This document shows, piece after piece, positions 7,291-56,126 of a stretch of 64,000 nucleotides of DNA. Position 1 is the first letter of the stretch. Each line of letters starts with the position of its first letter. The stretch is taken from the IMG/VR virus record IMGVR_UViG_3300037488_002392. The stretch is one strand, 5' to 3'. Position numbers and translations under genes: made by a program. The stretch is from a virus. Taxonomy: Duplodnaviria > Heunggongvirae > Uroviricota > Caudoviricetes. The notes under the pieces are model-generated. The model was not told the origin of the DNA. It was given only the letters and a program-made list of their open reading frames with translations, and did not search any database.

Positions 7291-8250
7291 GTGGCTGATA
7301 TAAATAAAGACTCATACATAGCATCAAATGCAGTTCCTCCTATTAATGTGGAGCCATATAAAGATGGAAATCTCTGGGCACGGGATGGTCAGACGGTATG
7401 GGATGATAAAAAGAAGATGTGGGGGCAAACTAAATATATATACAAACCTGAAGTCATCCCTAATACAAAAGACCCCTATATAGTAACTGATGAGAGTGAG
7501 CCTTATGATAGTGGTGGTGGTATATGGAAACAAAGGGGGGTGACTTATTGGGATAGTGCCAAAAACATGTGGGTAACTGGTGACTATACATACCATCCTG
7601 AGATTACTGTCGCTGCAGATAAGGAAGCATATATAAAGAGACATAATGTAGGAGTGGCACAGAACAAAGCGGAAGAGTTAAGGGTCTTCAATGAGGGGCA
7701 ACTTAGAATGGCTATTTATCAAGGGATAAGGAATCGGAATACTGAGGCTGGAGTGTATGGGAATGAACAGGCATCATCGGTACCGTATACTTACCAAGAA
7801 TTTATTCCATCTCCTGCCGCAGCCCCTCTATCCCCTGATGCCATTAAGGAATGGGAAGATGCAAGATGGCGATGGGAAGCAGAAAACAGGGGGATTACAG
7901 AAAGAGTAGCAGATAGACCTGCATATTGGGAAGAGAAGACGGAATACATAAGTGCTGATGCTAAACCAGAGTGGGATATAAATATACCAAAGTGGGAAGA
8001 AGAGGTTGAATATATAAGTGCTGAAGACAAGCCAGAGTGGGAACAATATCGTACTCCGCCGTGGATAGAAAGGAGGAAAGAGGCTGAACAAAAAGCCATT
8101 GTTGCACCAATGCCGCAAGGGGACAAGTTGAGAATAAAGGATAGCCAGAGGGTTTCCCCAAGGCGTGATAATGTAATACAACGAGCTAAGTTAACTGCTG
8201 CCGTCAGTAAGGACAATATGACTCAAAGGACAGGTAGGGTATTAAGGTGA
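7291..8250 (+). CDS. Hypothetical protein with tandem KPEW(D/E) repeats and a C-terminal IVAPMPQG motif.
   Basis: GTG start with a TAGGAG SD. A sigma70-like promoter lies upstream. Repeated EYISA.DKPEWD segments. Shares the N-terminal G.W.RDG.T.WD...K.W motif with 32546..33112. Confidence 0.65.
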   Translation: MADINKDSYIASNAVPPINVEPYKDGNLWARDGQTVWDDKKKMWGQTKYIYKPEVIPNTKDPYIVTDESEPYDSGGGIWKQRGVTYWDSAKNMWVTGDYTYHPEITVAADKEAYIKRHNVGVAQNKAEELRVFNEGQLRMAIYQGIRNRNTEAGVYGNEQASSVPYTYQEFIPSPAAAPLSPDAIKEWEDARWRWEAENRGITERVADRPAYWEEKTEYISADAKPEWDINIPKWEEEVEYISAEDKPEWEQYRTPPWIERRKEAEQKAIVAPMPQGDKLRIKDSQRVSPRRDNVIQRAKLTAAVSKDNMTQRTGRVLR

Positions 8251-8834
8251 TACAAACACAGGACGTAAAACCAATGTTAGGGGGAATAAATTCTCCAGGC
8301 ACATTAGTAGGATTTTTACAGGCATTCGCAGCGAGTGCTGAAATAACAACATGGGTAGATAAGGTTAGTTATAAATATGTTGCTGACCAATATGTCAATA
8401 AGGATAGCATTTGCTCATCTACATTCCAATCAAGTGGTTCATTTTTAACAAATAGGTCTGGTTCATGTTATGACCTTGCAATGTTCTCAGCCAATATACT
8501 CAGGTTACTTGGTTATGAATGTGATATGCTGAACTTTGGTTGGATATCAGATATCAAGACAGTCCATGCTGCGTGTAGGTTTTGGCACAATGATGAATGG
8601 TATATTGTTCACGGGTTTTTAAATGGCAGGATAACCTCTATAGAGGGTTCTTTCTTCTCAATAAAAGACTTTATTGAGAAGTTTGCTGTAATGGAGAAGG
8701 AAGAAACTGGCAAAGATATTAAGATGATATTCATCGATAGTTTCGGGTTTGAAAAATTTGGCGAGCCAACTTCATTAACAAGGCTTTATCCTTCTAAGCA
8801 AGAAACAGTTAAATTAGGATATTGGGAACTTTAA
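8247..8834 (+). CDS. Transglutaminase-like (papain-fold) cysteine peptidase domain protein.
   Basis: GSCYDLAMFSANILRLLGYEC matches the Cys motif of transglutaminase-like proteases (G.C..fA..f..llR..GIP.R). The downstream HAACRFWHNDEWYIVHG matches the His motif (H.W.E.y). Confidence 0.5.
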   Translation: MIQTQDVKPMLGGINSPGTLVGFLQAFAASAEITTWVDKVSYKYVADQYVNKDSICSSTFQSSGSFLTNRSGSCYDLAMFSANILRLLGYECDMLNFGWISDIKTVHAACRFWHNDEWYIVHGFLNGRITSIEGSFFSIKDFIEKFAVMEKEETGKDIKMIFIDSFGFEKFGEPTSLTRLYPSKQETVKLGYWEL

Positions 8835-8848
8835 ATTAAAGGGATACT

Positions 8849-23800: not shown

Positions 23801-26800
23801 TTAGATAAAGCGTGGAAAGAATATGACGGAGCAAGGAAAGACGTTGGAGTTGTTATTGAGAGTCCAAGTTTGCCAAGGGTTCCTTCGGAGTTAGATGAAT
23901 GGTTTGATACTATATGGATAAGGGCAAGCAAGGGTGAGAATATAGAGACTGAATATGTAGGATATCTGAATAGGGTATATCCAAAACAATATGATATGCC
24001 TACTGCTATCAGGATGGCACGCTCTATTATGAATGAGGCTACTAAAGCTGGTTCTATAGTTGATGACATCCAAACTGGCAGATTGTCTAGAATAAGGGAT
24101 AAGGCAAGTAAGGGTGAAGATATAACAGATGAATATGCGCAATGGTCAGCAGACGTTTATAAAGGTTTTTATACTCCTGAGCAAGTTAAGCAATTTGCGA
24201 AGGTACTTATGGAAGAGGCTGGTAAAGAAAAGGCAGGTCTTGAAGATGCCCAATATCAAAGATTGGTCGACATTAGGGAGAGGGCTAAGAAGGGTGAGGA
24301 TATTAGTCAAGAGTATGCACAGTGGTTAGAAGAAACCTACAAAGGCTTTTATGATGAGGCGCAGGTTGCGACTCTGACTAAGGAGTTGATTGACGATTCC
24401 AAGCTGGCTAATACTGATAGTTATTTATTGAAAGTAATGCGTGATAGCGGATTGGTGAAGATTCCCAAGACCCTCGCTGAGAAGGTGTCAGATGGAACTG
24501 CTACCGAGAAGGAGTTCAAGCAATATCACGTAGTGCAGTTTAAGGATACTACTGGTAACAGGATATCATCCAAACGTCTTCAGAAAGATTGGGAGACTTA
24601 TCAGGCTGGAGTTAGAGAAGCAGCTATTGATAGGGGGGTAGCATATGACCCGTATACATATCTGCTGAGCAGATATAGGGAAACAGGTGAGAAGGTTCTG
24701 TCTGATGCAGTCAAAGAACAATATATTAAGTACAGGGCATTAGAATATCCTGAATTGGCGGAACAGGCGCAGAAAGCGATTGATGGCGTTTTGAGCCAAG
24801 CGGAATATGCGGCATTTATAGAGAGAGCCATTGACTTAACTGGGCTATATCCTTCTACTGAACAAATGAGTTTTGTCCCCTTAAACAGGATAACACTTGC
24901 GATGGAAAGCGCAGAATGGAAAATTAATAGGGCACGGGACAGTATAGCAAGGTTGAATAACATGTTGGTTGACACTACTAAGTTGTCGATTGATAAGATT
25001 ACGAAGACTGCTAATGATTTGAATGTCATATTAAGCAGCGTGGCAAGGGATGCCTCGACTTATGTGAATTCAAAGTTATACTTTGTTCAGGATTGGGCAG
25101 ATAGTATTCAGATAGCGTCACAGGTAGCAAATTTATTGATGCAGCAGATAGCTAGCAAAGCATGGGATAAAGCAAGGACTTCTTTGGTTAAGATTAGTAA
25201 TGCTTTGGCAGGGTATGAAGTCCGATTAGCCAAATCAGTAAATACTGCGTGGACTAAAGTGAGTGATACTGCATATGATAGGGTGGGCAAACCTATTGGT
25301 GAAGCGGCATTGAAGATTTCTACTCTAACCACTGACCTGCTGAATACAGTCAGGAATGCCACAGTTGAGAATTGGGATAAGGCAAAGGTCAATATTAGCG
25401 AGAAAGTGGATAGGTTATCAACACAGGTAAATGATGTTTATCGAAGTTTTGGATATGTGAAGGATGTAATGGATTCTGCCTTGAGTGCGAGGATAGAGTC
25501 TGTTCTCAACGATGCGAGGAACAATATTGAAAACGTAAGACAGTTTGTAAATAGCACTACGGTAGAACTACTAAATGAGAACCGTGCTAAATTATTAGCT
25601 GCTATGGAAGACATTAATAATAAGGTGTCACCAATACTAGAGGAAACAGGTAGGTTTATTAAAGAGAATTCAGCGATGTTGAGTGATGCAGTTAATATGG
25701 CTTGGGGAGTGAGGTCAGCGCAGTTTGTCGATATGGCTACAAATATTAGTAGAGATATAAGTGATGTGGGCAAGAAGGTCGCTGCTCAAACATCAGTGCT
25801 GTGGAGCAAATCAAAAGCTGGTATAGTGGCAAGCATCGAATCTATCGAAGCAAACGTGGCGGAGTTGAGGAAGCAATTGGACTATGTGGGCACGCAGCTT
25901 GATTCCATATCTAGAGCAAGGATAGAGGGTATTCTCAATGATGCACAAGTTAATATAAGTAGTTGGAAAGAGATGGTGCAAAATACCACAGTAAAGTTGC
26001 TAGATGAGAATCGTGCCAAGATAGTGCAGCTATCCGTGGATATAAATAGTAAGGTAACTCCTATGGTGGAAGATGCCAGCCGTGCCTTCAAAGAAGGTAC
26101 TGCGATATTAGGGGATGCTGCCAGCATGGTATGGAATGTGCGTTCAGTACAGTTTATTGATATGGTTAATAAGATAAGCAGTGATATAGCTGATATCAGC
26201 AATCAGCTTGCTTCACAGGCAGTTGGAACGTGGAACACATCTAAGGCATTAATCATAGTGAATATCAGCAAAATAAATGCTGATATAGTTAGCTTGAAAC
26301 AGCAACTAGATTACGTTGGTACACAGGTTGATTCTTTAGCACGGGCAAGGGTAGAGAGTGCCCTTGATGAGGCGCAATCCAAATTGAGCGTATGGGGCGA
26401 GCTGGTGAAGAACACCACGGCAAAGACATTATCTGATAATAGGGCTAAGATGGTTGAGGTAGCTACGGACATTAATAACAGGATTACTCCTATAGTGGAT
26501 GACATATCAAACAAAGTTGGTACGGCTGCTTGGGAGTCATACAGGAAATTGTCACAAATAAGTACTAATATATCTAACGAGTTGCAATCGTTTTATAATA
26601 CGGTTGCTAACTACACAAGAACCTACAAGGATTTGACTGTTGCAGGGATAGAGGCAAGGATGACCACTTTGCGTGCGATGATAGCGGAAGCTAAGTTAGT
26701 TGGTGATGAGGTAGCTATTCTTGCCAAGAATAACCTTATATCTGAAAGGGTGAATGACTATTATAATGATATTAGTAGCAATTTAGATATAATGTTCAAC

Positions 26801-28975
26801 GGATTGAAACGGGCTATTGATGAGAAGCGTGCTGACTTGAGTCCTGCATTAAGTAGAACCGTGATGGATGCTATCGCTATGAACGATAATGCTAAGAAAG
26901 CAGTGTCAGGGATGATTGCAGAGGTTGCGTTAGTAAGCATGGCTGCATTACGAGAATGGAATATGAAGGTAGTCAACCCTTTGATTGATGTGTCTGCCAA
27001 GATTGATAGTGCTATAGATAATGCCGCTTTGCTGACATCGTTATATGCAAAGGGTAAATTAGCAGAGGGTCAGGCAAATGTCCAGAAGCTAGCAGCCACC
27101 CTTGCCCCTTATATAGATGATGCTAGATACACTGCAAGTGAAATTGCACGGTTAACGAAGAATAACTTATTATCGGAGAAAGTAGCTAACTCCTTTAACG
27201 ATGTGAAGATAAATGTAGATGGGTTGTTAAAATCATTATCTGATGATATATCAAATGGTCGGGCTGACTTAAGCGCAAAGAGTCAGGAGTTAGTTACTAA
27301 GTTGTTAGATGCTAATAGCAAATTCAACGATATAGTCAGCGATACAAAGTTGATGGCGAGTCTTATATCAGAGGCTATGGTTGGAGCAGTAGATGAAGCA
27401 GTATTCAGGTCTGAAATGCTGATGGATAATATGGGAAGGGCAATCGATAACTTAGCGACACAGATTAAGCAGTCTGAGTTTACTCAAGCAACGATTAATA
27501 ATATCAATAATGGGATTGATGGATTCAATGGTAAGGTTGAGGAACTCAAGTTGATGAGTGAATTTTTGAAGAATGCTTATAGCAATAAGGCACATGAGAA
27601 GTATACAGACATGATAAGCAAGATGGGGAATGCCGTTGGCTCATTGCGTAAGTTTGCAATAGAAATACAGGGCAAGACTGGGGCAGCATTAGGAGCAGTT
27701 CAGGCACGATGGGCTGCTCTGTTGGATGATATTAAGCTCTATATGTCAGCAAGCAAATACAATTTTGGTGAATATAAGAATGACTTGAAACAGGGTGAAG
27801 TGCTAGGGGCAACTAACGTCAGAAAGTCTAATAAAGCTGATGCGGTCAATCAGTACAAACAAGCCTATGTGCGGATACAGGAACAGATAGCTAGGGAAAG
27901 GATAAAGCAGGGCCAATGGATGAGGGATGCCGCTAAGGTATTTGATGACAATCCAAGGCTGGCAGATAGGATGAGGGATGCAACTATATCTGCAACAGAA
28001 ATGCATAATCTCTTTGATGGGATATTGCCTAAAGATATTCTGGATAATGAGATAGCACGCATAGAGGCTATAAAGGCATCTAAGGGAACAGTTGGAGATA
28101 TTCCAAGCAAGTTATTAGATGAGGCACGCAGGGCAAGGCGTACAGATGAACCGAGGGTAGCACCTTTCAAACCAAGTATCTCTGTTCTTGTTCCAGCTAC
28201 CATACCTGATAGGGTAGATGCAGGGGGAAGACCAAGAGATTTCCTTACATCCTCAAGGATGATTTTGGCTGAGAGGAAAGAGCCACGACCCAGTGTTACT
28301 CCTCGTCCTGAACCACGACCTGTGCCCGCTATACGTCCTGAACCACGACCTGTGCCCGCTATACGTCCTGAACCACGTCCTGAACCAAATCCTCGTCCTG
28401 AACCACGACCTGATGGCGGAAGAGGAGATGGTGGTAGAGGCGGTGGAGGCAGAGGAGGCGGAGAACGTGGCGGAGGAGACAGGGGTGGTGGTGGTCGAGG
28501 GGGAGGAGGTCGTGGCGGTGGTGGTCGTGGTGGTGGGACTGGAGGGGGAATACGTAGTTTCCCTGTTATCCCGAAAGAGAAGAAGCGCACTTGGGATTCT
28601 CTGACTCGTGAAGAAAAGCTCGCATCCATAGTTTGGAAACAGGGTTGGGCATTTTGGTGTCTACCCCCGATGTACTCCCAAAAAGATTTGATTTACAGTA
28701 ATAAGCCATTTGCAGGGACTAAAATACATTCAGGCCCTAAATCAGCTTACAAGTCTGTGGCCAAAGTGAAAGGTGCCCAGCTTCCAGACAGAATAGATAT
28801 CGACCTAGGCATCATGGATTTATCTTTTGTAAGAGACAAAGATAGTAAAGATGTGAAAGTTTTCTACCGTGCAGACCCACTCCAAAAGACAACTGGTCAA
28901 GGGCCTTCCAATGTTCCAGAGACATTAACTCATCGTACTGGTCATGTTATAACGCAAGTTTCTTCAGTAGGTTGA
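8849..28975 (+). CDS. Giant multidomain protein of 6708 aa. It has a Pro/Ala/Gly-rich N-terminus, a three-fold repeated module bearing three zincin-like HExxH motifs, a CxxC thioredoxin-like segment, a GNAT-like segment, three tandem ~130-aa coiled-coil repeats and a C-terminal (PEPRP)n + (RGG)n tail.
   Basis: The 20,127-nt ORF is uninterrupted, with AAAGGGA SD before the ATG. The three HExxH motifs are HELSH (~14020), HEFGH (~15800) and HESGH (~16950), each preceded by a paralogous P(V/I)E.QQK..DAG segment. Internal repeats are visible at the protein and DNA level. Confidence 0.85.
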   Translation: MNYEELLRRLPVQRSLRYCNSPAPAAVAAAPPSPPSPSSLGDISPSSLDGGWGNTPGAAPPAAPPPGMATQAGAMQGILSNLGIALSTGGGASAPTGAPSIAWNPSQSLAFSQKYQMEPTGLTPQGFVYGTHGLDNGGGGGGGGDGKYRVGASPLVPDEDAKTMVTEGPYMGWTDSGTTKGSKGALTSIIGYAKGFGVPTGLSNLGFTYSSNPMAATAHNNNIGEKHDVDLTNTFEGYYRAVNAAIPPAKGVPAFNPGEKAWSEMWGRANVYTTQHEGDASPKNMVAILGAGPNSEIDSGSNTSVEDLIGVNGKILLYSDNKPVKGYVTRDNEGKIIAQSHVAYNADGSVASVSGALVGTGFMKAGQKIISLITVTPSEGNIWAQLRAGVSPNTDLLVEAEHQAYVNGVANGENVDGISNRPATAYGVLAAAGYSQAANAAYGNAVNVAQMKANAEGTVGPITRANMELAEGVAVYDKKGNEKAPTLRWDLVTGKVLVLPGAVAPQPSSDGLVSVAPKNWIEWGDFVKMANSADFKGIGQILDSTERAKYIDVLQKAAELYVKAAEAAPSKFAIDNKLDGKEKEAIVAIINGAKTSGGTDWVKAKYNIEDMRRGINQALSMPLGTEYIPPYSSEIKPKIEDGAGRFNAVESVYNDMVKEYAPAVVAAVVDWGAALRKSYGEASVLAQEALNSYQVRLLQTYAKYKGDWSKIGPVMAKVVADAQSSAESMEGAPASILPMFSQTIFTTKAEIIPSNPNMSKIERLPNGSYLAQYAGKIFNIKIDGSWNRYISDGDKYVLVPESELVAEDAELANAIIAEIKNEGAAVVVPGKTEAKVESHLEEEMPLPYGAPSKPLRGELIHLKEGAITQVPTQQAEFTGMLTDNTSVKLPNVLNNPAIRVVGVADNLEAIGIEYGGHNWAVEKRVVDGKVVYAACWGGSCKPTIYDSYDSVVGAITSGKVKFSETEANDTWESLTKMYALKPVAVQYPSIQNLSPQQIVDNALATRSSWIEPKKAGYDPLKDSFWKTVVDSFSLLGISPSLELKSQTEKPLLTILAEADIKDSKRITGEAVIPFWFDPSNESLKVEAFPLQFRGVVKAVNTANAQVYGEKKLGEGIAYIGWLSAFATALKMQNLTELHDSLVATTKYDLDKIYNSTELSEAAKDSLFNINSTSRTIKSNDEVAKIFAQNGIKDDAYKVKGSATDLKYDLDKINNSKTIPQAVKDSLYDIAYGTDASARTRKSDSEITKILEQNNIPTEAYLRPEADILIDWVSKNIKPDKLIPFSAWTEPNANYTIEGIVDGAIVKLILTMEDVAIVALGPWMVQSLLRDVIQRTFAPATLITGEPAKAASLWVALKAIFSTTCTNGGCFSNALPAILSAIGDVTVKIAGGKIGGASLVTHLSSQPVDAETPSLMATAVSGKTIPYRGELTDEQMGTNKVDYGNAVIGPDGKMITVGDGELRDYIGKSKGIVVVQTISAGCRMCEQQFADARKAIGEKYGYDNPYITYVLLNKNDDGTLSLINSLVAQGAAFTLEGTPETQIIINGKLLSYKEGGFIDGYKSDFVGILEKIATEQGINIFKGGFEAKPVQGAIPPVVPISKGNANLILASAVSFVKYDPHTILPADAKEIGLPPIPIEPSKIDLEKLDPKSSDTIWLTCYKNYNIPVEEQQKYYDAGIMLYEDSLDSSNLGYFIPGEKKVSLNIPLLQELLSNDKSMVVERTFAHELSHYQWDTELSSGQKKAFAIDILRTIKDDPFSPLAQEMRDVVGLYSGHYEGDLSFLVDIDSMDFERWNPDGYTKSFIEWTANRIFNEMHSRIFEDTYRARRLNMQIPIPDNLKQYFVSGTMDNKPDAKPFDYQIFKSQLSGIGGSLPMLENKPVPGSYRVGPSNEVDGPPELSDQVVATFTGKGTVKGRGNAPDTDMTVFYAVVKNPDGSVGGLWYKDAGGKWQEGDYKYHPKTGEIETIVCDMGGACSLRASDWKEGIKYVVDSKWAMPTVSAPPTAGSLPKEKVWGAQPVEKGKDSDWWAFFKPVIFAVDSLMLQASGFTQDEIDSGIKKGYTIPQLKQIAEEANKDRNAPNIKKDGLLRYGEDTLKVQPEKPQHVSQEVTINTQYLAQDVVTPLVADATGKVETKKLSKSATLLGPSLELTSPGGTKFIFDDKGELVSATKDKFTDRSELNNGWERVDVTQLMKARLQLEKYGNEPPVPMDYTGKNDNYDITTAEGIWRTWYQDYKVPVELQQKIKDAGIRLNISELKAEYAAQYEETINIHKDENILGKIIREVLSGKDSNDYVINMAMPPEEGVIMLGGGPLASIGHEFGHFLYGRGSDEQHKQLIAASKTIPNYSEIKNRVISVLGYDADTISKVWSSAELDDRVANEIYASLFNKLFDSRSRDYGVDLKLVPDDVKDTFFKAFSIKDDKMTSLGLSYSDLVNGTGWAMDALLESGKTSQALDKVIEDSLYRSGTKEETAFDKEIIKWIRGEKGVERTIPSYSEVKGKLVQLAKDITDGKISLDGAPVDVMNAIAALAREMPELGAPEAKPMRGELIKDYKQRSLADTFLAQINAPAVGLLEQLGDEKTLPGVINTWNKNTLPPKPHQYTLAEREAILSKKPESTNDYWKYQYAKFETPIELQQKIYDAQPRIFLTSGMGVAMGGLAFANPLTMLITALGGKSPFVGTDSLMLVAKEGTPDDIAFTFAHESGHYLYNGLPQQDKAKVTESLLTLSSRTSMVSSVSDAYKRLYGDIIGGLKGQSAVDNETFAEIFATIMTGKKNEWGYLADARIGLKELMDFQSIVMPYINKGLPSTRLSEEYKTETMLNEIRQTIFHKESFDPTHVTEWDKQVLASFDAHKEGKDNGDGTWSTTFNYKDIKADLQKIIDANKSGMETVEGAPDELKPIGRTEVIREFPTEILEPIGKTEIIHLPIITSGVSSDIFAPKPTQEIIEPKTIQLIKDGKGGDFPRKDGIYYKGGSGGTVVEYFIERGAGDIPLSIWYRDPKGIWASENFSRVGTDVKIECTQGLCAFHAADLAAGVKYIIDKGWKSYEAPSGVMPPVTPPASSTESKPEYETRNGVRVLKPRDGMPKEGMKWDILAPAVSSEEGRLLRSLGFKQFEIQAGIEKGYSVPQLKQIADMASKEKAHPTILREGLLKWGEETLKVQPEMPQSLLNDIPTTKEMIAGIKDRQTLGTAGDLSPFENTALGIVVDNTDEQGNVAWGKVTNGIKGLIALANSGAYPLKGTPARLAKSEVTEIKPITATVGDMAAVMAGSAFGQGISLEPWRVEAEGGDNRLLPINGATVTPSKSPNAPGGKDVTYASGGIGYVLSFMDNGKLACVSIDIGGKGNPVILYPEQLRGDNKIECSGGQCINMSAGLKPGLDWADSYISSGMELPEGRVFRDKSEAEPLKQVVVPPAKAEVVTSADAVAVPITKWKAESLQDQSSGNKESILAGFNSYGDKLYVSIGQLKEYQETVGKDMFKLLWDSGGAHNVNKYIDSQKASEETMEDTFRDMTVNGFLKWDKGSWKGETVGVSGNVPSPQDVSKALKTEDGFKGWDFGFSGFANFLRDKNVPDVEIENRLCSVGCNNTVEVMKTIPPDHFMSNKEFGEKYGDSTLSRKIVPRIGDEYRMGEGKNDPRFATGITDYGLAAGTKQDNPWLGFSAQVLNRWTQFTMDLDKGMEPLNVKRSPEAERQAELAQAIIDNSTTIRLSGRGAKSDTELGAVLGVSTQSGLGIFSPPISTKAKEDVYKMYDSAGEELGVMYSTDNLHKQFMGGKQKPVGEDAGSDAMRLLAAATSGVVTVAKMVGWDVPITVNKMAIDTIQGQFGDAFKAATLTSAGILLSPLTQTATSAEFMGKGDWPRGLGEFTGFMIGMFVGPKEIFQAGRRVLNVIDPSRSTYRAGFVEISLPATIHKDMIDIAILTAQNMAMEKINEAYYRGEKLPSEYRIPTTQGIVRVRISPEAMVDPMPSLSHVTNNPGLITGLRHDGAFVVGDRGIGSPALSLFVTGVGSAGGTVHFGLRLKEGEVPYAIKTIVSPTEFTNIPPTVRNKLWWHKSTDAMKALTKAWLEGDFGEEFMIATAKFWHKAGNLVEYEEAAPFKMVFTAAEKKMLPGYVKYERIDKDGKLIPDGDNTTPVAREIPYTLMESPIEMANDKGIVVIPQYGTYKEYLTISRAAWDFAIENNRPLLPSLMDTYKRELISVQQQVKALLEGKLRVNVNLATPEDLLTTSSPFYLAEKGVEVQPLKQSMYDDYQMRLDEPNNVTGQMGGIIVRFPEPFPLGADHQPFKKVELSQFGRVGGLVRSGQTIIPIDFKKGELILAVAQTDPLPRGMTKNFMEVPPGAFQKMVRKNPKEKFLTHHSNNELADYKLVVNKQLNSGYAVTPSGELVNFFNNGKKGEGAIVLLDAIGKGARNLNAFDGWLVGYYKKFGFVEVGRKKSTQAGIPDTVDMEYKGPAMFDDLVDVAAKNLGHSAKWAGSVKKMFKNEGEPLTVWGDAGGAIDMFEVNNFTDAANHSLRHELGYNVAGNLLKYIGTLLSKRKDHSLPGAQVWIADVSGMGNPVLKNAWNDRYADGTHKMPEIAVWNRWNPRTERITVDVAVYHAIEKIAKDYPQLGIDMSKVTKYVGDDFYSRKNLLENEDVGFADRPAIPLDEVRNMGVERAILRDRMVASGQPIEITGPLYSTSEKISPIVEQMTLFAEALPGYVSLRQQKAFKDANALIESVKEGGAPTFVTVNVERIARDLGIDAETVAAYKFNPTELVKVMIEKVAEVEAELKKQEAAPVPTTAEIIGLNNLVEKMSKGKFEFTADELKLQIKFGKELLQMMEDKVAEMKQKGEGTQPVAQPPVQQTILTRDKNGVEVHEGDKLFYEKPDGTRVQVDLTIKDGGMSHEAIPYTIEGKETWLHNFRDTEGNAYWQVNRDRLVVEKVAQPKVAALDGVAKVALSQEQLDVIEAKIDNGSVSELEFKSFMADAIKKSDNVELSTIELDKAWKEYDGARKDVGVVIESPSLPRVPSELDEWFDTIWIRASKGENIETEYVGYLNRVYPKQYDMPTAIRMARSIMNEATKAGSIVDDIQTGRLSRIRDKASKGEDITDEYAQWSADVYKGFYTPEQVKQFAKVLMEEAGKEKAGLEDAQYQRLVDIRERAKKGEDISQEYAQWLEETYKGFYDEAQVATLTKELIDDSKLANTDSYLLKVMRDSGLVKIPKTLAEKVSDGTATEKEFKQYHVVQFKDTTGNRISSKRLQKDWETYQAGVREAAIDRGVAYDPYTYLLSRYRETGEKVLSDAVKEQYIKYRALEYPELAEQAQKAIDGVLSQAEYAAFIERAIDLTGLYPSTEQMSFVPLNRITLAMESAEWKINRARDSIARLNNMLVDTTKLSIDKITKTANDLNVILSSVARDASTYVNSKLYFVQDWADSIQIASQVANLLMQQIASKAWDKARTSLVKISNALAGYEVRLAKSVNTAWTKVSDTAYDRVGKPIGEAALKISTLTTDLLNTVRNATVENWDKAKVNISEKVDRLSTQVNDVYRSFGYVKDVMDSALSARIESVLNDARNNIENVRQFVNSTTVELLNENRAKLLAAMEDINNKVSPILEETGRFIKENSAMLSDAVNMAWGVRSAQFVDMATNISRDISDVGKKVAAQTSVLWSKSKAGIVASIESIEANVAELRKQLDYVGTQLDSISRARIEGILNDAQVNISSWKEMVQNTTVKLLDENRAKIVQLSVDINSKVTPMVEDASRAFKEGTAILGDAASMVWNVRSVQFIDMVNKISSDIADISNQLASQAVGTWNTSKALIIVNISKINADIVSLKQQLDYVGTQVDSLARARVESALDEAQSKLSVWGELVKNTTAKTLSDNRAKMVEVATDINNRITPIVDDISNKVGTAAWESYRKLSQISTNISNELQSFYNTVANYTRTYKDLTVAGIEARMTTLRAMIAEAKLVGDEVAILAKNNLISERVNDYYNDISSNLDIMFNGLKRAIDEKRADLSPALSRTVMDAIAMNDNAKKAVSGMIAEVALVSMAALREWNMKVVNPLIDVSAKIDSAIDNAALLTSLYAKGKLAEGQANVQKLAATLAPYIDDARYTASEIARLTKNNLLSEKVANSFNDVKINVDGLLKSLSDDISNGRADLSAKSQELVTKLLDANSKFNDIVSDTKLMASLISEAMVGAVDEAVFRSEMLMDNMGRAIDNLATQIKQSEFTQATINNINNGIDGFNGKVEELKLMSEFLKNAYSNKAHEKYTDMISKMGNAVGSLRKFAIEIQGKTGAALGAVQARWAALLDDIKLYMSASKYNFGEYKNDLKQGEVLGATNVRKSNKADAVNQYKQAYVRIQEQIARERIKQGQWMRDAAKVFDDNPRLADRMRDATISATEMHNLFDGILPKDILDNEIARIEAIKASKGTVGDIPSKLLDEARRARRTDEPRVAPFKPSISVLVPATIPDRVDAGGRPRDFLTSSRMILAERKEPRPSVTPRPEPRPVPAIRPEPRPVPAIRPEPRPEPNPRPEPRPDGGRGDGGRGGGGRGGGERGGGDRGGGGRGGGGRGGGGRGGGTGGGIRSFPVIPKEKKRTWDSLTREEKLASIVWKQGWAFWCLPPMYSQKDLIYSNKPFAGTKIHSGPKSAYKSVAKVKGAQLPDRIDIDLGIMDLSFVRDKDSKDVKVFYRADPLQKTTGQGPSNVPETLTHRTGHVITQVSSVG
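25430..26520 (+). repeat. Three tandem ~390-nt (about 130-aa) repeats inside the giant ORF encoding coiled-coil-like segments.
   Basis: The protein segments LDYVGTQLDSISRARIEGILNDAQVNIS..., LDYVGTQVDSLARARVESALDEAQSKLS... and ...ALSARIESVLNDARNNIE... align with matching downstream TTVKLLDENRAK / TTAKTLSDNRAK / TTVELLNENRAK. Confidence 0.75.
28306..28365 (+). repeat. Perfect 30-bp tandem duplication (CCTGAACCACGACCTGTGCCCGCTATACGT x2) encoding PEPRPVPAIR x2 inside the giant ORF. It is followed by PEPRP and RGG repeat coding.
   Basis: Direct inspection of 28306-28335 and 28336-28365. RGG-type repeats are encoded at 28420-28550. Confidence 0.9.
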
Positions 28976-32545: not shown

Positions 32546-33112
32546 ATGATGGCTACTAAGAAAATTTACAGAACAGTAGGCGTGGTTCCCCCCGCCACCA
32601 CTGAAATGTATCAGGATGCGGATGGCAATTGGATGAGGGATGGTGGAGCAACATGGGATGCAGACAGGAAGGCGTGGAGGAGGACGTTATGGAAGTTAAC
32701 GGAGCCAACCTATAGGGTTACGTATAATGATGGTACGCAAACAATCTGTGAGACTCCTCCCGAAGTTTATGTAGAACCCATTGAGCCTGTAAATCCAGTG
32801 GAACCGATAGATGAATCTGAATCATCTATAGATAGTGAACCAGTAATGGGAGAAGAGAGTCCTATTGAAGTTATGAGACCACATGTTGTATCAGTGGAAG
32901 ATGTACCTGCTCAATGGGAACTGAATAACGAATACACATCATCATCAGAAAGACCTGAATGGGATGAATACATGACCAGGGAAATAATTGGCATAGAACC
33001 TATAGTCGCTCCTCTCCCGCAACAAAGAGAAGATGGCGGTGATTGGCTGGCTCAAAAAGTTAAACGAGCAAAAGGGATAGGCGGTATGCCTACAGTTGGA
33101 ATATTTAGGTAG
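32546..33112 (+). CDS. Hypothetical acidic protein, paralog of 7291..8250 (W-rich N-terminus, PEWD repeat, IVAPLPQ motif).
   Basis: ORF of 188 aa with the motifs DGNWMRDGGATWDADRKAW, ERPEWDEY and PIVAPLPQQ. Confidence 0.6.
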   Translation: MMATKKIYRTVGVVPPATTEMYQDADGNWMRDGGATWDADRKAWRRTLWKLTEPTYRVTYNDGTQTICETPPEVYVEPIEPVNPVEPIDESESSIDSEPVMGEESPIEVMRPHVVSVEDVPAQWELNNEYTSSSERPEWDEYMTREIIGIEPIVAPLPQQREDGGDWLAQKVKRAKGIGGMPTVGIFR

Positions 33113-50565: not shown

Positions 50566-50577
50566 GAGATATGCAAA

Positions 50578-51036: not shown

Positions 51037-51045
51037 GAGAATATT

Positions 51046-51225: not shown

Positions 51226-51243
51226 ATAAAAGGAGATAATAAA

Positions 51244-51435: not shown

Positions 51436-51446
51436 GGATATTTGAA

Positions 51447-51713: not shown

Positions 51714-51716
51714 ATT

Positions 51717-52181
51717 ATGCCAACAAATTGGTCAGTAATGCTCAAGGATAATCCTTTAATTGTAAATACATACAAAAGAAAGGTTGAGTTCGCACGGCAA
51801 CAAAAGAGAGACAAAAGCCAAAGTGATGAACTTACAAGGGAAGATTTGGAGCCAATACTGAAGAATGCATTAAATATGGTAAAGACTAATACTCCCCCTG
51901 GCATGAAAGCCCCCAAAGATACCGATGAGTTAATAATGATGTTCAGGGACAGTGGAATAGCAGGAGTATTTGGAATAAGGGACAGTGAAATGAGCGCAAT
52001 AGGCGGGGCTGCAATAGAGCAACCAACAGGCGGAGAAGGCGGAATTACTTTAGAACAATTGATGGCGATGGCTCAACAGCAACAGCCGATAGTGGCTCCG
52101 ATGCCCCAGGGATATCCACAAGCACCAAGGATGCCAATGCAGAAAATAAGTCCCCAAACGGGTAAAATGGGGGGATTTTGA
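51717..52181 (+). CDS. Hypothetical protein with a Q/P/M-rich C-terminus carrying a PIVAPMPQG motif. Paralog of 52400..53128.
   Basis: N-terminal similarity (LKDNPLIVNTYKRKV vs LKNYPIILTHYKKKI). The shared motif sits near the C-terminus. Confidence 0.55.
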   Translation: MPTNWSVMLKDNPLIVNTYKRKVEFARQQKRDKSQSDELTREDLEPILKNALNMVKTNTPPGMKAPKDTDELIMMFRDSGIAGVFGIRDSEMSAIGGAAIEQPTGGEGGITLEQLMAMAQQQQPIVAPMPQGYPQAPRMPMQKISPQTGKMGGF

Positions 52182-52390: not shown

Positions 52391-52399
52391 GTAAATAAT

Positions 52400-53128
52400 A
52401 TGAGATGGACAGAAACCTTAAAGAATTACCCCATCATCCTTACTCATTACAAGAAGAAAATCGCTGCGAAGCGAAGGATGAAAGCCTCACAGGGGCTGGA
52501 TGAAACTCTGACTACGCAGGATATGGAACAGATAGGAAACGATATTATCAAGACGATGAAGGAGAACCTTCCTGACGATGTAATTAAGCCTGCGAATTAT
52601 GATGATGTGGTAAACAGTTTAAGAGGAAATGATGTAGGCAGGTCACTGGGATTCAGGGATGGCGATTTCAACGCTAAACCCGCTCCAGTAGAAAATCCTC
52701 CTTACCAAGAAACTGTCACGGAAGAGGTAGTTACTGAGCAAATGAATCCTTCCGCAGATGTTCCGACTACTGAAGAGATTGCACAAGCGGAATCAATGGC
52801 GACAGAACAACCATCGGAAGATGCTCTTGTAGAAGAGGCACTTCCTGTAGAGGAACCTTTGCCAGTTGAAGAACCTGTAGTAGAAGAAACAGTTACTGAA
52901 GAAGTTGTTGCTCCCGTAGTGACTGATGTAATAGAGGGGGTAGGGAATGTGGCACAGCGGATAGCGGATGAATTCAAACCCCTCTCTCCGATTGCTGCTC
53001 CTCTTCCATACCAGACACAGTATGGGCAGACTAATACAAATAGACCAGCGGGTGTTCCGAAACCCAATAATGTCCCACAGGTAGGCACATCAAAATTTTG
53101 GAATGATGACCTCAAATTCTGGAGTTAG
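52400..53128 (+). CDS. Hypothetical acidic protein with a (V/E/T)-rich repeat region and a PIAAPLP motif.
   Basis: Paralogous N-terminus to 51717..52181. Low-complexity EE/VT/PV repeats. Confidence 0.55.
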   Translation: MRWTETLKNYPIILTHYKKKIAAKRRMKASQGLDETLTTQDMEQIGNDIIKTMKENLPDDVIKPANYDDVVNSLRGNDVGRSLGFRDGDFNAKPAPVENPPYQETVTEEVVTEQMNPSADVPTTEEIAQAESMATEQPSEDALVEEALPVEEPLPVEEPVVEETVTEEVVAPVVTDVIEGVGNVAQRIADEFKPLSPIAAPLPYQTQYGQTNTNRPAGVPKPNNVPQVGTSKFWNDDLKFWS

Positions 53129-53133
53129 AATTG

Positions 53134-53307: not shown

Positions 53308-53309
53308 AA

Positions 53310-53645: not shown

Positions 53646-53660
53646 AAGGAGGCAAATAAA

Positions 53661-53885: not shown

Positions 53886-53897
53886 GAGGAAAATAAA

Positions 53898-54164
53898 ATG
53901 GCAGATTATATGGCAGTAGACCAATATGGTTATACCTTTCATGGATTAAAGCATCCACGCAAAGACTTGATGAAAAAAATAGGTAGTAAGCATGCAGATA
54001 TAATGTATGTTGACCAAAAATCAGGTGGTTCAAGGAAGAAGGGTTATGTAATAGGCGGTCACTGGCTTGATGTCTATGAAGTAACTCCAATGGGTGGTAA
54101 AAAGAAATCGGGGACTTTTGCAAAGAAAAGGGTTGCAAAGAAATCCTGCAAAAAGAGAAAGTAG
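53898..54164 (+). CDS. Small basic protein with a GGKKKSGTFAKKRVAKKSCKKRK tail.
   Basis: GTAGGAGGAAAATAAAATG. Tail family A. Confidence 0.6.
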   Translation: MADYMAVDQYGYTFHGLKHPRKDLMKKIGSKHADIMYVDQKSGGSRKKGYVIGGHWLDVYEVTPMGGKKKSGTFAKKRVAKKSCKKRK

Positions 54165-54166
54165 CA

Positions 54167-54442
54167 ATGGAAAGAAAGATTTATCTAGTCTATACGGGCA
54201 AGAAATCTAAACTTGTAACTAATAAGCAAGATGCAATAAGTTTAGCTAAAAGGGAAGGAGCGCAAATAAGGCAGTATCCCTTAAAGGCATATAATGAAGG
54301 AAATAAACCACGCAGGGGTGAGTTTTCTGGATGGGATTTTCCAACCCTACATATGCTATCCGACCCCTTAGAGATAAAGAAGAAGAAGGGAACATTTGCA
54401 AAGGAAAAAGTTGCAAAGAAAACTTGCAAAAGGAGAAAGTAG
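54167..54442 (+). CDS. Small basic protein with a KKKKGTFAKEKVAKKTCKRRK tail.
   Basis: Tail family A paralog. Confidence 0.55.
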   Translation: MERKIYLVYTGKKSKLVTNKQDAISLAKREGAQIRQYPLKAYNEGNKPRRGEFSGWDFPTLHMLSDPLEIKKKKGTFAKEKVAKKTCKRRK

Positions 54443-54444
54443 AA

Positions 54445-54750
54445 ATGATAAAAGCATCAGGAATGAGGTCAGGCGGTTCGTCACGCCGCAGGGTACATAA
54501 GCCCGTGAGGAGAGCAGTACGCCGTGTTGCTCAGGGCAACTGGAACCTATTCGGGTTAGTCCACGGAGGCAAAGAAGGCAAACAGTGGCAGAAAGCCAAT
54601 GATGCGGTCACTACCGCACAGACCCATATCCAGTCAACGGTACAGAAGATGAAGCAAGATTACATAATCGTAATTATGAAGAAGGGTAAGCTGAGTGCCA
54701 ATGACAAAGCGAAGCTTGTGGCCCAAATCCGTGGCATGACCTTTAGGTAG
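54445..54750 (+). CDS. Small basic protein.
   Basis: AAAGGAGAAAGTAGAAATG. The track ORF extends upstream to 54331. Confidence 0.55.
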   Translation: MIKASGMRSGGSSRRRVHKPVRRAVRRVAQGNWNLFGLVHGGKEGKQWQKANDAVTTAQTHIQSTVQKMKQDYIIVIMKKGKLSANDKAKLVAQIRGMTFR

Positions 54751-54757
54751 GATTGTT

Positions 54758-54925
54758 ATGGCTAAAGCGAAGTCAAAACAGGAACATAAAAGTAAACCAA
54801 AGCTTAAAAAGGTACGGGCAATATCCAAAGTTATCCCTAAGAGATGCCCAGCCTGCGGAGGCTCTGTGTTTGTCAGTAAGTGTTCTTGTTGTGGCAGTCC
54901 AATACCTTACGGGAGGAGCAAATAA
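54758..54925 (+). CDS. Zinc-ribbon small basic protein of 55 aa.
   Basis: CPACGG...CSCCG. Confidence 0.45.
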   Translation: MAKAKSKQEHKSKPKLKKVRAISKVIPKRCPACGGSVFVSKCSCCGSPIPYGRSK

Positions 54926-54926
54926 A

Positions 54927-55130
54927 ATGGGTAAAAGAATTATGGTAGTCGATGATGTGCGCCTTGGTCGTGTAGACGTAAAAGGGAAGGGTGCTGCATT
55001 AAAAGTGGCGAAGGCGAGATATTCAAAGTATACTGTTACAAAGGTAGTCCCTTATATGGGACATACCACATTGCACGATGTTTATGGGCATCCAAAAGGA
55101 TTTACAAGCTCAGGAAAGTGCAGAGGATAA
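54927..55130 (+). CDS. Small basic protein of 67 aa.
   Basis: GGGAGGAGCAAATAAAATG. Confidence 0.5.
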   Translation: MGKRIMVVDDVRLGRVDVKGKGAALKVAKARYSKYTVTKVVPYMGHTTLHDVYGHPKGFTSSGKCRG

Positions 55131-55168
55131 GCAAAAGGAGAAAGAAATGCCAGAAGGAGTACATTGAA

Positions 55169-55603
55169 ATGAAAGTAGAAAAACAAGGAAACCGAATCAT
55201 TGTCACAAAACAAAAGGGTGACCCATATATTAAATCTTCGGATTGGAACCCCGATGCCGAATCCACTTTATTGTATCATGTGAAGAAGGAGTTGAATAAA
55301 GAGGGATACAATCTTGCTAAGGTCAGGATGGCTAAAGATGGTCATCTGGTGAGTGATATCCAACATTATCTAAGACCCTTGAAGGAGAACAAGGATAATT
55401 CCAAGAACATATATATCTATAATCCACATTGGGCAATTGCTGGAGAAGAAGAGTCATTTAATAAACATGGTAAGGCAGAATTCATGATAGTGCCTGATAT
55501 ATATGAAAAACGAAAAGCAAAACCAGTGAGACTTCCTTCACAAGGTACTTGGAGCAAATGTAAGAAAAAGAAGGTCAGAGCAAAAGCTAGCAAATGTAGG
55601 TAA
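55169..55603 (+). CDS. Basic protein of 144 aa.
   Basis: AGGAG SD 8 nt upstream. The track ORF has a GTG at 55118. Confidence 0.5.
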   Translation: MKVEKQGNRIIVTKQKGDPYIKSSDWNPDAESTLLYHVKKELNKEGYNLAKVRMAKDGHLVSDIQHYLRPLKENKDNSKNIYIYNPHWAIAGEEESFNKHGKAEFMIVPDIYEKRKAKPVRLPSQGTWSKCKKKKVRAKASKCR

Positions 55604-55616
55604 AAGGAGTAGAGTA

Positions 55617-56126
55617 ATGGGTTACGAATATTTTATGAATCCACCGAATGCAGTCAAGTTCAGTCAAATAAAGACTGACGTAGAGAAAGGGTTGATAGGA
55701 GGTTTAACGCCTTTCCAAGAAATAAACATAGAGCCAGGGCAGTTCTACATTGATGACGGAGCAGGCAATGTCCTCTATATAGAGAAAGGAAAGGATAATG
55801 TAGGATTCGCACGAACTTATTACTCTAACTACGAATGGAAAATACTACAGAGACTTATGAGGTATTACGGGTTCAATGTAGTGGTGCCAGCCATGAATAA
55901 TAACCTTAATGATATAGTCTACGAAGCAGATGACTTTGAAGGATTGGACGATTTCATAGGCAGTGGAAAATTCAATCAAGTACCAGAAGGTTATGCCAGT
56001 ATGTTCAAGAAAGGAGTCAGTGCTATTCCTGCTCCCATGCCACGTGATATGTCAGGTGAATGGGGAAGGAAATATCGTTATATAAAGTACAGAGAGATAA
56101 ATGGAAAAGTAAGCAGGATAATCTAA
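55617..56126 (+). CDS. Hypothetical protein, paralog of 56908..57363. Contains an AIPAPMP motif.
   Basis: AAAAGGAG SD. Shared AVKFSQIKTDVEKG and C-terminal GKVSRII. Confidence 0.6.
   Translation: MGYEYFMNPPNAVKFSQIKTDVEKGLIGGLTPFQEINIEPGQFYIDDGAGNVLYIEKGKDNVGFARTYYSNYEWKILQRLMRYYGFNVVVPAMNNNLNDIVYEADDFEGLDDFIGSGKFNQVPEGYASMFKKGVSAIPAPMPRDMSGEWGRKYRYIKYREINGKVSRII

Follow-up and report, generated by a model that had tools for sequence, protein, structure and literature searches.

A conserved AP[ML]P motif in the C-terminal tails of three protein families of a phage-like element, possibly part of a docking label

Proline-rich short linear motifs, including viral late domains, are bound by SH3, WW and UEV-type modules (PxxP, P(T/S)AP), and SH3 ligands of class I and class II read +xxPxxP and PxxPx+, respectively. 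Some proteins of phage T4 share only a short targeting peptide, the capsid-targeting sequence (CTS) (PMC3012670; PMC7411985). The T4 CTS carriers travel with the DNA, and giant polyvalent proteins have been proposed to do likewise (PMC5512222). C-terminal cargo-loading peptides, such as LTVGSLRR and GGDLGIRKL, load encapsulin shells of the HK97 fold (PMC11190991). In addition, a C-terminal targeting propeptide is known for the prohead protease of SPN3US, whose cleavage motif AXE is reminiscent of T4 gp21 (PMC7411985).

Then, could a peptide of this kind occur in a genome where almost no protein has a family match? The stretch of DNA analysed here (the window, 64,000 nucleotides) belongs to an uncultivated phage-like element of Firmicutes type, for which the signs of phage nature are indirect. 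Its host is probably bacterial and Clostridia-like, based on the strong Shine-Dalgarno sites, the TTGACA-17-TATAAT promoters and a relative binned in a Clostridiales MAG. The sigma-70 promoters and strong Shine-Dalgarno sites, together with intrinsic terminators and that relative, also led us to drop the idea of an archaeal virus with an ESCRT late domain. Among the curated collections, no relatives were found in GenBank phages, IMG/VR or PLSDB plasmids, and the back-translated PIVAPMPQG pattern found none in IMG/VR.

Five window proteins carry a motif with the consensus P-[IV]-x-A-P-[ML]-P-[QYR] and the core AP[ML]P, and in all of them 24-44 residues lie between the motif and the C-terminus. 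A preliminary description had placed the motif in these five ORFs, and translation confirms every copy at its site, in frame and on the + strand:

7291..8250, + strand: g7291, family A, 319 aa, with W-rich mini-repeats and a disordered-type C-terminal half; motif AIVAPMP at nt 8095 (aa 269/319)
8062..8247, + strand: tail of g7291, with helix-like WIERRKEAEQK (8062-8094), AIVAPMPQG (8095-8121) and C-terminal TGRVLR (8230-8247)
32546..33112, + strand: g32546, family A, 188 aa, with its own terminator and promoter unit; motif PIVAPLP at nt 32999 (aa 152/188)
32960..33109, + strand: tail of g32546, with WDEYMTREII (32960-32989), PIVAPLPQQ (32999-33025) and C-terminal TVGIFR (33092-33109)
51717..52181, + strand: g51717, family B, 154 aa, with a helical domain (aa 1-97) and then a disordered tail; motif PIVAPMP at nt 52086 (aa 124/154)
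52044..52178, + strand: tail of g51717, with predicted helix ITLEQLMAM (52044-52070), PIVAPMPQG (52086-52112) and C-terminal PQTGKMGGF (52152-52178)
52400..53128, + strand: g52400, family B paralogue, 242 aa, with a long acidic disordered linker; motif PIAAPLP at nt 52988 (aa 197/242)
52949..53098, + strand: tail of g52400, with VAQRIADEF (52949-52975), PIAAPLPYQ (52988-53014) and PQVGTSKF (53075-53098)
55617..56126, + strand: g55617, family C, 169 aa, whose alpha/beta domain (aa 1-108) precedes a disordered tail (AlphaFold2); motif AIPAPMP at nt 56022 (aa 136/169)
55986..56123, + strand: tail of g55617, with predicted helix EGYASMFKKG (55986-56015), AIPAPMPRD (56022-56048) and C-terminal NGKVSRII (56100-56123)

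The recurrence is indeed non-random, as had been supposed. Against 300 within-protein shuffles of the 91 window proteins (19,957 aa), AP[ML]P was observed 5 times with a mean of 0.34 expected (maximum 3), I.AP[ML]P 5 times with 0.013 expected, and the full motif regex 5 times with 0 expected. Every coding AP[ML]P (5/5) stands within the full motif, while the six-frame scan revealed just two further copies of the core, both in non-coding frames; the motif is absent from the giant protein described below and from all other window ORFs. The 8-mer IVAPMPQG, common to g7291 and g51717, is among 4 shared 8-mers, with 0.023 expected. The copies differ at synonymous sites, for example ATTGTTGCACCAATGCCG versus ATAGTGGCTCCGATGCCC, which indicates selection on the peptide. 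Therefore, the motif is a peptide feature, and a DNA-level repeat as its source is ruled out.

It should be noted that the carriers, previously taken for five otherwise dissimilar proteins, fall into three families. The family A proteins g7291 and g32546 have N-terminal and internal mini-repeats in common (BLASTP E 2e-6 to 2e-5), and the family B proteins g51717 and g52400 are paralogues with 28% identity over 99 aa (E 5e-14). Three independent families still suffice for significance. One might suspect chance or a composition artefact, considering that the regex was written once the instances had been seen and that two carrier pairs are paralogous. However, the shuffles gave 0 to 0.34 expected against 5 observed, and the motif is found in three unrelated families and conserved in dozens of orthologues from independent metagenomes, by which the artefact is refuted and its probability becomes practically negligible.

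Metagenomic orthologues in all three families retain the motif, at identities as low as 34%. For g51717 there are 34 metagenomic homologues, and across 37 family B sequences (again down to 34% identity) either [AT]P[ML]P or SLP is kept, the Pro at aa 130 of g51717 is invariant, and no other stretch of the tail is as well conserved as the motif, whereas its flanks drift. The g52400 orthologues read TPV[LP]APLPYQ or TPITAPLPYQ, and differ from one another in nothing but the x residue, which is A, L, P or T ahead of APLP. In family C, the g55617 orthologues P0037-P0043 keep IPAPMP or RIAPMP, and a tandem unit of about 22 aa, PEDYAxxFKEGV-IPAPMP, is present in two copies in P0037 and three in P0039, a modularity typical of multivalent binding motifs. 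In family A, VAP[ML]PQ is kept both in P0044, a g32546 orthologue (61% identity) with PIVAPMPQE, and in P0049, a distant relative of g7291 with VVVAPLPQY, whereas the motif is degenerate or deleted in other distant relatives, such as P0045 and P0046 on the g32546 side (PITVQVPLS and PQPSQIPLS). As for homology to described proteins, scanning the five carriers together with neighbouring proteins against Pfam and PHROGs assigned no carrier to a family, except for a weak match of g52400 to phrog_14971 'virion structural protein' (E 0.0055) that is reproduced by no orthologue. For g7291, the sole exact match in the databases is the protein itself, encoded on a 92,815-bp JGI contig.

The AlphaFold2 models of families B and C consist of a folded N-domain and a tail with pLDDT <50, in which a short helix is predicted 4-5 residues ahead of the motif. 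For example, pLDDT is 80-90 for residues 1-97 of g51717 and <50 for residues 98-110 and 120-154. A composition-based score also assigns disorder to all five carriers. The motif is the best-conserved part of the low-confidence tail in families B and C, while acidic and Pro-rich linkers elsewhere in the carriers show no conservation. Families A and B have a second element in common, namely an end of the form T(G/V)x-hydrophobic-x-R, so that what is shared amounts to a tail of about 30-50 residues in two parts. Among the 91 window proteins, only g7291 and g32546 end in T[GV].[IVLM].R, with 0.009 expected and P(>=2) = 5e-5 from tail shuffles, for a pattern generalised post hoc, after the data had been seen. 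The pattern also fits many family B orthologues, and those of g51717 have PQTGG[IM]xR in place of PQTGKMGGF. In a sortase- or exosortase-type sorting signal, a transmembrane helix and a basic cluster would come after the motif, whereas the residues past it here are polar or basic and form no hydrophobic helix. In short, the motif is real, enriched, conserved and a property of the peptide, and in families B and C its place is within a tail modelled at low confidence.

Could such tails simply be remnants of a single ancestral C-terminal module that recombination or duplication has spread, serving as a flexible proline hinge or linker with no specific partner in common? The in-genome paralogues in two of the three families would suit this origin, the two-part likeness of the A and B tails is compatible with common descent, and the genomes are mosaic, with giant proteins sharing only patches. 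However, a plain linker would not hold an exact A-P-[ML]-P at 34-60% identity with its neighbours varying freely, the diverged synonymous codons imply long purifying selection, and the other acidic and Pro-rich linkers of the same proteins are not conserved. We therefore regard a mere leftover as improbable.

Three further features of the window have to be considered together with the carriers:

8247..8834, + strand: g8247, transglutaminase-like (papain-fold), candidate protease, between g7291 and the giant gene
8849..28975, + strand: giant ORF, 6708 aa, with three HExxH repeat modules; candidate hub or co-packaged partner
56128..57363, + strand: g56128 and g56908, tandem family C paralogues, both keeping C-terminal G.W...K..SRI[WV]

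The tandem paralogue g56128 has a degenerate KVAPNP at 56788-56805, and g56908 is without the motif; the post-motif C-terminal sequence is nevertheless conserved and common to g56908 and g55617. Good conservation of the giant protein in relatives is confined to its last ~110 aa (within 28526-28972), whereas the giant proteins of this mosaic lineage otherwise share only patches and differ in domain content. HExxH is invariant in the three repeat modules, and the giant-protein domains have no significant Pfam or PDB match; the modules are accordingly rejected as recognisable peptidases. The neighbouring g8247 scores 23.1 bits with Pfam DUF553 (cutoff 20.5; E 5.6e-5), and tblastn found no match to it in the fetched loci of the relatives, including those with a motif-keeping family B gene. 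A Gln-donor site for a transglutaminase is rejected, since the Gln past the motif is not retained from family to family (the residue is Q, Q, Y or R, with N in the relative L016) and g8247 is absent from those loci. The SPFH protein g31583, likewise absent from the relatives' fetched loci, is unsupported as an obligatory partner.

Four divergent relatives (L001, L014, L015 and L016) have the start of the family B gene at, or right behind, the stop codon of the giant gene. In the window, both family A genes belong to the same + strand module as the giant gene, and the family B and C genes are located 23-27 kb from it, amid small early-type genes. Another relative, L018, has the giant protein's C-terminal domain, with no family B gene and no motif in the 20 kb covered.

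With these neighbours in view, the motif could also be the recognition or cleavage site of a maturation protease, which would remove a C-terminal propeptide of 24-44 residues from each carrier. Alternating prolines are atypical for endopeptidase sites, and tandem helix-plus-motif repeats would be cut into useless fragments of ~22 aa; a motif that is Pro-rich, free of Glu and tandemly repeated is thus less likely to be a protease site. The candidate enzymes would be a prohead protease encoded outside the window, the papain-fold g8247, which adjoins g7291, or the three HExxH modules of the giant protein, as zincin-like peptidases have been proposed to process polyvalent proteins (PMC5512222). 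The fairly constant distance from motif to C-terminus fits cleavage, as does the natural family B variant P0028, which ends 3 residues past the motif, and prohead proteases do remove targeting propeptides, one of them C-terminal in SPN3US gp245 (PMC7411985). However, known prohead-protease motifs are cut after Glu (PMC7411985) and the motif here has no acidic residue, the giant protein itself is without the motif, g8247 is missing from loci with motif-keeping family B, and the HExxH modules have no profile support as peptidases. Moreover, a conserved post-motif tail, kept even in the motif-less g56908, would be unexpected for a discarded propeptide. Cleavage at the motif is therefore considered unlikely.

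A second alternative is that the tail binds a hub protein in a host of Firmicutes type, with the carriers being take-over or early effectors instead of virion components. Hub-binding peptides common to unrelated phage proteins are a known strategy, for example the clamp-binding tails of T4. The genes g51717, g52400 and g55617 lie within a 13-kb block of ~40 small genes with an early-region look, which lies downstream of non-coding DNA that contains iterons and strong sigma-70-type promoters, and the probable host is bacterial and Clostridia-like, both of which suit this alternative. On the other hand, no match was seen by eye to the clamp motif QL[SD]LF, the SSB tip, the FtsZ C-terminal peptide or SH3 class I/II ligands, four relatives show synteny between family B and the giant gene, and the family A genes stand within the giant-gene module. 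A host hub as the common target appears rather unlikely.

We return to docking or targeting within the element. The preliminary description had offered as options a prohead or maturation protease site and a common docking or targeting peptide, the second perhaps connected with incorporation into the capsid or with the giant protein, and this second option fits best. It is favoured by the enrichment, the conservation of the motif in orthologues amid drifting flanks, the disordered tails, the tandem copies, the second element, the synteny of family B with the giant gene and the precedents described above, whereas the protease option is disfavoured by the Pro-rich, Glu-free motif, the conserved post-motif sequence and the lack of g8247 in the relatives' loci. 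Counted against docking are L018, which lacks both the family B gene and the motif, the 23-27 kb between the B and C genes and the giant gene, the degeneration or deletion of the motif in distant family A relatives, and the post hoc nature of the C-terminal pattern. On balance, our leading but tentative reading, held with slightly less than even confidence, is a short linear motif for docking or targeting, with the conserved peptide as its core and with a common partner that is probably connected with the giant protein or with particle loading.

In such a mechanism, a short amphipathic helix followed by the motif, within an intrinsically disordered C-terminal tail of ~30-50 residues, would be carried by three unrelated N-terminal domains (families A, B and C), and the motif would probably be bound as a short polyproline-type stretch. 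The tail may thus be a transferable address label, by which different proteins reach a single shared partner, most likely encoded by the element and connected with the giant multi-domain protein or with protein loading into the particle. This would be cargo or co-packaging recruitment, by a logic perhaps analogous to that of the T4 CTS or the encapsulin cargo-loading peptides. We infer that the motif binds something, that the partner would be phage-encoded and that the purpose would be association with the virion or the giant protein; association with the virion is conjecture, because Pfam and PHROGs scans pointed to no capsid, portal or scaffold gene in the window, ~29 kb of the source contig lying outside it. 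A bolder version, decidedly doubtful at present, is that a two-part, disordered C-terminal tag in this Firmicutes phage lineage, built from a helix, P[IV]xAP[ML]P and a terminal T(G/V)x-hydrophobic-x-R-COOH, loads several unrelated small proteins into the particle with a polyvalent protein of multiple thousand residues. If the address label is genuine, it would give a handle on an otherwise dark genome by naming a set of co-acting proteins, point to a hidden receptor and provide a tag that could be transplanted to foreign proteins so as to load them into or onto the particle or the giant protein, just as the T4 CTS and encapsulin peptides are already exploited as loading tags. It would also illustrate that motif-level comparison can link proteins left unconnected by homology searches.

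How does this locus compare with the known systems? Polyvalent proteins and P1 Dar-type co-packaged sets resemble it in having a mosaic of multiple thousand residues with repeated HExxH and small partner genes, according to the available part of PMC5512222, which mentions no shared docking peptide; the giant protein here differs in that none of its domains is significant against Pfam or PDB. Like the ligands of SH3, WW and UEV modules, the motif comprises 6-8 residues with fixed prolines, lies in a disordered region, is position-independent and sometimes occurs in tandem. However, its spacing, P-3-P-1-P, is not that of SH3 class I or II, the system is bacterial, and Pfam detected no SH3, WW or UEV domain in the window proteins scanned, most of which are without any match.

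The prohead-protease motifs (T4 gp21; AXE of SPN3US/phiKZ) likewise recur as short motifs in several head or ejection proteins of one phage. Their last residue is Glu, cleavage at them mostly releases N-terminal propeptides, and they are found in major structural proteins, whereas the motif here is Pro-rich, Glu-free, unlike the known specificities (AXE, L/IxE) and carried by small non-annotated proteins; among the window ORFs, in which no capsid protein was recognised, neither the large 6708-aa protein nor any other ORF besides the five carriers has it. The T4 CTS (IPI-III, Alt) is comparable in that a short peptide is the sole feature common to diverse proteins, there as a prohead address label. 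That sequence spans ~10-20 aa at the N-terminus and is cut off by gp21 at a site with Glu, while the tail here is C-terminal in 5/5 proteins, Pro-rich, two-part and without Glu, with QG, QQ, YQ or RD following the motif.

The encapsulin system comes with a shell gene of the HK97 fold, whereas no shell or capsid gene was found among the window proteins scanned (Pfam, PHROGs), and AP[ML]P has no counterpart in the encapsulin peptides. The location, however, is the same: the peptides (LTVGSLRR, GGSENTGGDLGIRKL) sit at the C-terminus past a flexible linker on unrelated cargo proteins, as do the tails here (pLDDT <50 in families B and C, and a final T[GV].[IVLM].R in family A and in family B orthologues), and the ends TVGIFR, TGGIGR, TGRVLR and TGEIR resemble their Gly/hydrophobic consensus by eye over 6 residues, not statistically. 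Encapsulin cargo reaches one shell protein of the phage-capsid (HK97) fold (PMC11190991). If the two-part tag were true, these phages would have their own version of encapsulin cargo loading, based on a new motif and perhaps on a new receptor for proline peptides, located on the capsid or the giant protein.

Could the peptide (P/A)I(V/A/P)AP(M/L)P, reported in the preliminary description from five proteins, recur by chance? Translation of the five ORFs (each named by its first nucleotide) placed all five instances exactly where they had been claimed, with 24-44 residues C-terminal to the motif.

Motif-bearing ORFs and the start of the motif, from ORF translation
7291..8250, + strand: g7291, family A; AIVAPMPQG from nt 8095, residue 269 of 319
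32546..33112, + strand: g32546, family A; PIVAPLPQQ from nt 32999, residue 152 of 188
51717..52181, + strand: g51717, family B; PIVAPMPQG from nt 52086, residue 124 of 154
52400..53128, + strand: g52400, family B; PIAAPLPYQ from nt 52988, residue 197 of 242
55617..56126, + strand: g55617, family C; AIPAPMPRD from nt 56022, residue 136 of 169

In the comparison with a shuffled proteome that had been proposed, five instances were observed against 0-0.34 expected. Within-protein shuffles of the 91 window proteins (19,957 residues) gave 0.34 for AP[ML]P (maximum 3 in 300 shuffles), 0.013 for I.AP[ML]P and 0 for the full pattern. Four 8-mers, among them IVAPMPQG of g7291 and g51717, are common to more than one of the 91 proteins (0.023 expected from shuffles). 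Chance recurrence is excluded, its probability being next to nothing. In a six-frame scan of the 64 kb, AP[ML]P occurs seven times; five are the coding instances, and the remaining two are on the minus strand, in frames that are not coding. Synonymous positions differ between the DNA copies, so the peptide is conserved and a nucleotide element is ruled out as the conserved object.

The carriers had been described as otherwise dissimilar, but BLASTP paralogy within A and within B reduces them to three families. In family A, g7291 and g32546 are similar (E 2e-6 to 2e-5): both have a W-rich segment at the N-terminus and a WE...EY(I/T)S...(K/R)PEW unit in one or two copies. Mini-repeats make up the proteins of this family; those of g7291 comprise two copies of W.RDG.T.WD..K.W, a type weakly matching residues 1933-1959 of the giant protein (E 0.036), and two of WE...EYIS...KPEW. 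The g32546 gene is a separate transcription unit, with an intrinsic terminator (32481-32507) followed by a promoter (TTGACT-17-TAGAAT, 32513-32541); its ATG lies 5 nt past the -10 box, which suggests a leaderless mRNA, and the sequence upstream of g60102 is similar by eye. The family B pair, g51717 and g52400, is paralogous along the N-terminal ~100 residues (28% identity, E 5e-14). In family C, two tandem paralogues accompany g55617, namely g56128 with a degenerate KVAPNP in place of the motif and g56908 without it; all three share the C-terminal end G.W...K...SRI[IWV]. Comparison of the carrier proteins found no similarity between the families outside the tail.

No relatives of the element were found in GenBank phages, IMG/VR or PLSDB; orthologues are present in metagenomic protein and contig collections. 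Family B has 34 homologues there, plus copies at the relatives' loci L001 and L014-L016. Close homologues have an invariant QQPIVAPMPQG followed by a variable residue (Y, R, K, N, F), while relatives with 34-56% identity carry KPAPTPMPQR, KPAPLPQR, VQAPMPNK or VPVSLPQR. In an alignment of 37 family B sequences, no other stretch of the tail is as conserved as the motif, whose last Pro never varies. Orthologues of g52400 have TPV[LP]APLPYQ or TPITAPLPYQ, which shows that the residue preceding Ala is free. IPAPMP is retained in family C orthologues, apart from one that has RIAPMP. For family A, an exhaustive HMMER search found relatives with PIVAPMPQE (P0044) and VVVAPLPQY (P0049), two distant members with degenerate PITVQVPLS and PQPSQIPLS, and another member from which the motif is lost. 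P-[IV]-x-A-P-[ML]-P-[QYR] serves as the working consensus.

In AlphaFold2 models, residues 1-97 of family B form a confident helical domain (pLDDT 80-90) and residues 98-154 a low-confidence tail, where a predicted helix (112-120) directly precedes the motif (124-130). For family C, residues 1-108 are modelled as an alpha/beta domain and 109-169 as a low-confidence tail, again with a predicted helix (124-131) directly before the motif (136-142). All five motifs lie in disorder-prone sequence by a composition-based index, and an amphipathic-looking stretch stands 2-5 residues before each: WIERRKEAEQK (g7291), WDEYMTREII (g32546), ITLEQLMAM (g51717), VAQRIADEF (g52400) and EGYASMFKKG (g55617). 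In two family C orthologues a ~22-residue unit, PEDYAxxFKEGV-IPAPMP, is repeated in tandem, twice in P0037 and three times in P0039. Family B orthologues end in TGGIGR, TGGMAR and others, from which the pattern T[GV].[IVLM].R was derived. At the extreme C-terminus it occurs in 2 of the 91 window proteins, both family A carriers (TGRVLR, TVGIFR), against 0.009 expected from tail shuffles (P(>=2) = 5e-5); having been generalised after inspection, it carries less weight than the main motif. Family C ends in a similar NGKVSRII. What the carriers have in common is thus a two-part disordered tail, made up of a helix, the proline motif, 15-40 variable residues and a basic or hydrophobic C-terminal tip.

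What does this tail do? Of the two functions proposed beforehand, a protease site is the less favoured and appears unlikely: the fairly constant distance from motif to C-terminus, the transglutaminase-like (papain-fold) neighbour of g7291 (g8247; 8247..8834, + strand), the HExxH modules of the giant protein and the C-terminal targeting propeptide known in SPN3US (PMC7411985) speak for it, but the motif is Pro-rich and Glu-free compared with the prohead-protease motifs of SPN3US and T4 (PMC7411985), the giant protein lacks it, the unit is tandemly repeated, and the post-motif tail is conserved, even in a motif-less paralogue. The other function, docking or targeting of families A, B and C to a single partner, is tentatively favoured. 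It is supported by features that typify short linear interaction motifs: a fixed-Pro core of 6-8 residues in a disordered tail, strong purifying selection that acts on this core and leaves the flanks free, no dependence on the type of N-terminal domain, and occasional tandem amplification together with the preceding helix. That the tail is a conserved hinge, inherited as part of a shuffled module, is very unlikely, as this leaves the residue-specific conservation unexplained. In the docking model, the tail would bind a partner common to the three families, most likely encoded by the phage or element, and would most likely serve connection to the giant protein or loading into the particle.

The giant ORF (8849-28975, + strand) encodes 6708 aa. 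HExxH is invariant in its three ~220-residue repeat modules (aa 1725, 2318, 2701), and it also has long helical repeats, followed by PEPRP and RGG low-complexity repeats (aa ~6480-6570) and a C-terminal domain. Relatives' giant proteins (2906-3463 aa) have only patches in common with it, and the C-terminal domain (~110 aa) is the sole part well conserved (54-70% identity). The main result from gene context is synteny: family B starts at or directly after the giant-gene stop codon in the four divergent relatives L001, L014, L015 and L016. In the window, the giant gene is followed by a homing-endonuclease-like gene and several genes for membrane proteins, g32546 sits directly ahead of the g33160 homologue, and family B is 23 kb distant, within a block of ~40 small, very basic proteins. 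In L018, the giant-protein C-terminal domain is present and neither a family B gene nor the motif was found in 20 kb; the link of family B to the giant protein is therefore not strict, though suggestive. L018 (DHFP01000089.1, Clostridiales bacterium UBA4821 MAG, 23-10393) encodes a 3456-aa giant protein whose two H-x-T-L motifs (HITLRYIG ... HITLAEI) are suggestive of a 2H phosphoesterase/LigT-like domain, which is missing from the window's giant protein and illustrates domain turnover among these proteins. Because g8247, g7291 and the SPFH protein g31583 were not found in relatives' fetched loci where the family B motif is kept, they are rejected as obligatory partners. Docking to a host hub would fit the early-region placement of the B and C genes; it is rather unlikely, given the synteny of family B with the giant gene.

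Almost no protein of the element has a family match. It looks bacterial and Firmicutes-like, based on AGGAGG-type Shine-Dalgarno sites upstream of most genes, TTGACA-17-TATAAT promoters and intrinsic terminators in intergenic regions, a sole relative in a genome collection (the contig binned as Clostridiales bacterium UBA4821), and an ATPase-like protein with best phage matches in Moorella and Exiguobacterium phages. Homing-endonuclease-like genes and PHROGs matches favour a phage; no capsid, portal or terminase genes were found in the window, and ~29 kb of the 92.8-kb source contig lie outside it. These endonuclease-like genes are at 28972-29865, 48646-49317 and 60419-62011 (NUMOD3; HNH_3; an HTH-rich 530-aa paralogue of g28972), the first adjoining the giant gene at the position of the relatives' family B gene. 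At 2-7233, the large g2_3673 (DUF2341) and g3678 (fn3 domains) are paralogous in patches, each ending in a transmembrane helix, and are followed by small membrane proteins g6459 and g6916, conserved beside the giant gene in relatives; tailed-phage structural genes are not usually arranged like this. The minus-strand stretch 33743-45865 (GC 0.44-0.50 vs ~0.40 elsewhere), with two HATPase_c_3-like genes (g38659, g42501), DUF932-like g44807 and many small ORFs, may have been acquired as a separate module. The non-coding region 45900-47130, between divergent gene modules, has four 21-bp iterons TTATGGACGAATAGCTTTAGC (46611-46703) and inverted repeats of 17-35 nt (46376-46527), and is by its appearance a candidate origin of replication or regulatory hub. 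Nearly all of the ~40 small ORFs at 47137-60010 have pI of at least 10, the motif-bearing proteins being the few acidic or neutral exceptions; basic motifs recur in the block, namely G[STAEK][WF][GSAN] in Lys-rich context (16 observed vs 1.4 expected) and NP[WF] (5 vs 0.4). At 58064-59208, g58645 and g58951 start with an identical MLKKKKCATK, and g58064 also has KCATKK, so that they may form a small paralogous family or carry a common N-terminal signal.

No description of the motif, of the two-part tail or of the lineage exists in the collections and literature searched; the principle of a common address peptide on unrelated phage proteins is known already. The giant protein, whose domains have no significant match in Pfam or PDB, resembles polyvalent proteins, for which transfer along with phage or plasmid DNA and processing by zincin-like peptidases have been proposed (PMC5512222). 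The T4 capsid-targeting sequence, the sole feature common to diverse internal proteins (PMC3012670; PMC7411985), is a precedent for the logic of one address peptide on diverse proteins, and it shows that docking and cleavage are compatible. That the element is a phage which loads cargo by an encapsulin-like system and packages a giant polyvalent protein as well is improbable. In encapsulins, which are HK97-fold shells, the C-terminal peptides LTVGSLRR and GGDLGIRKL load unrelated cargo (PMC11190991), and the ends TVGIFR, TGGIGR and TGRVLR are like them by eye, a likeness that is a lead and no test.
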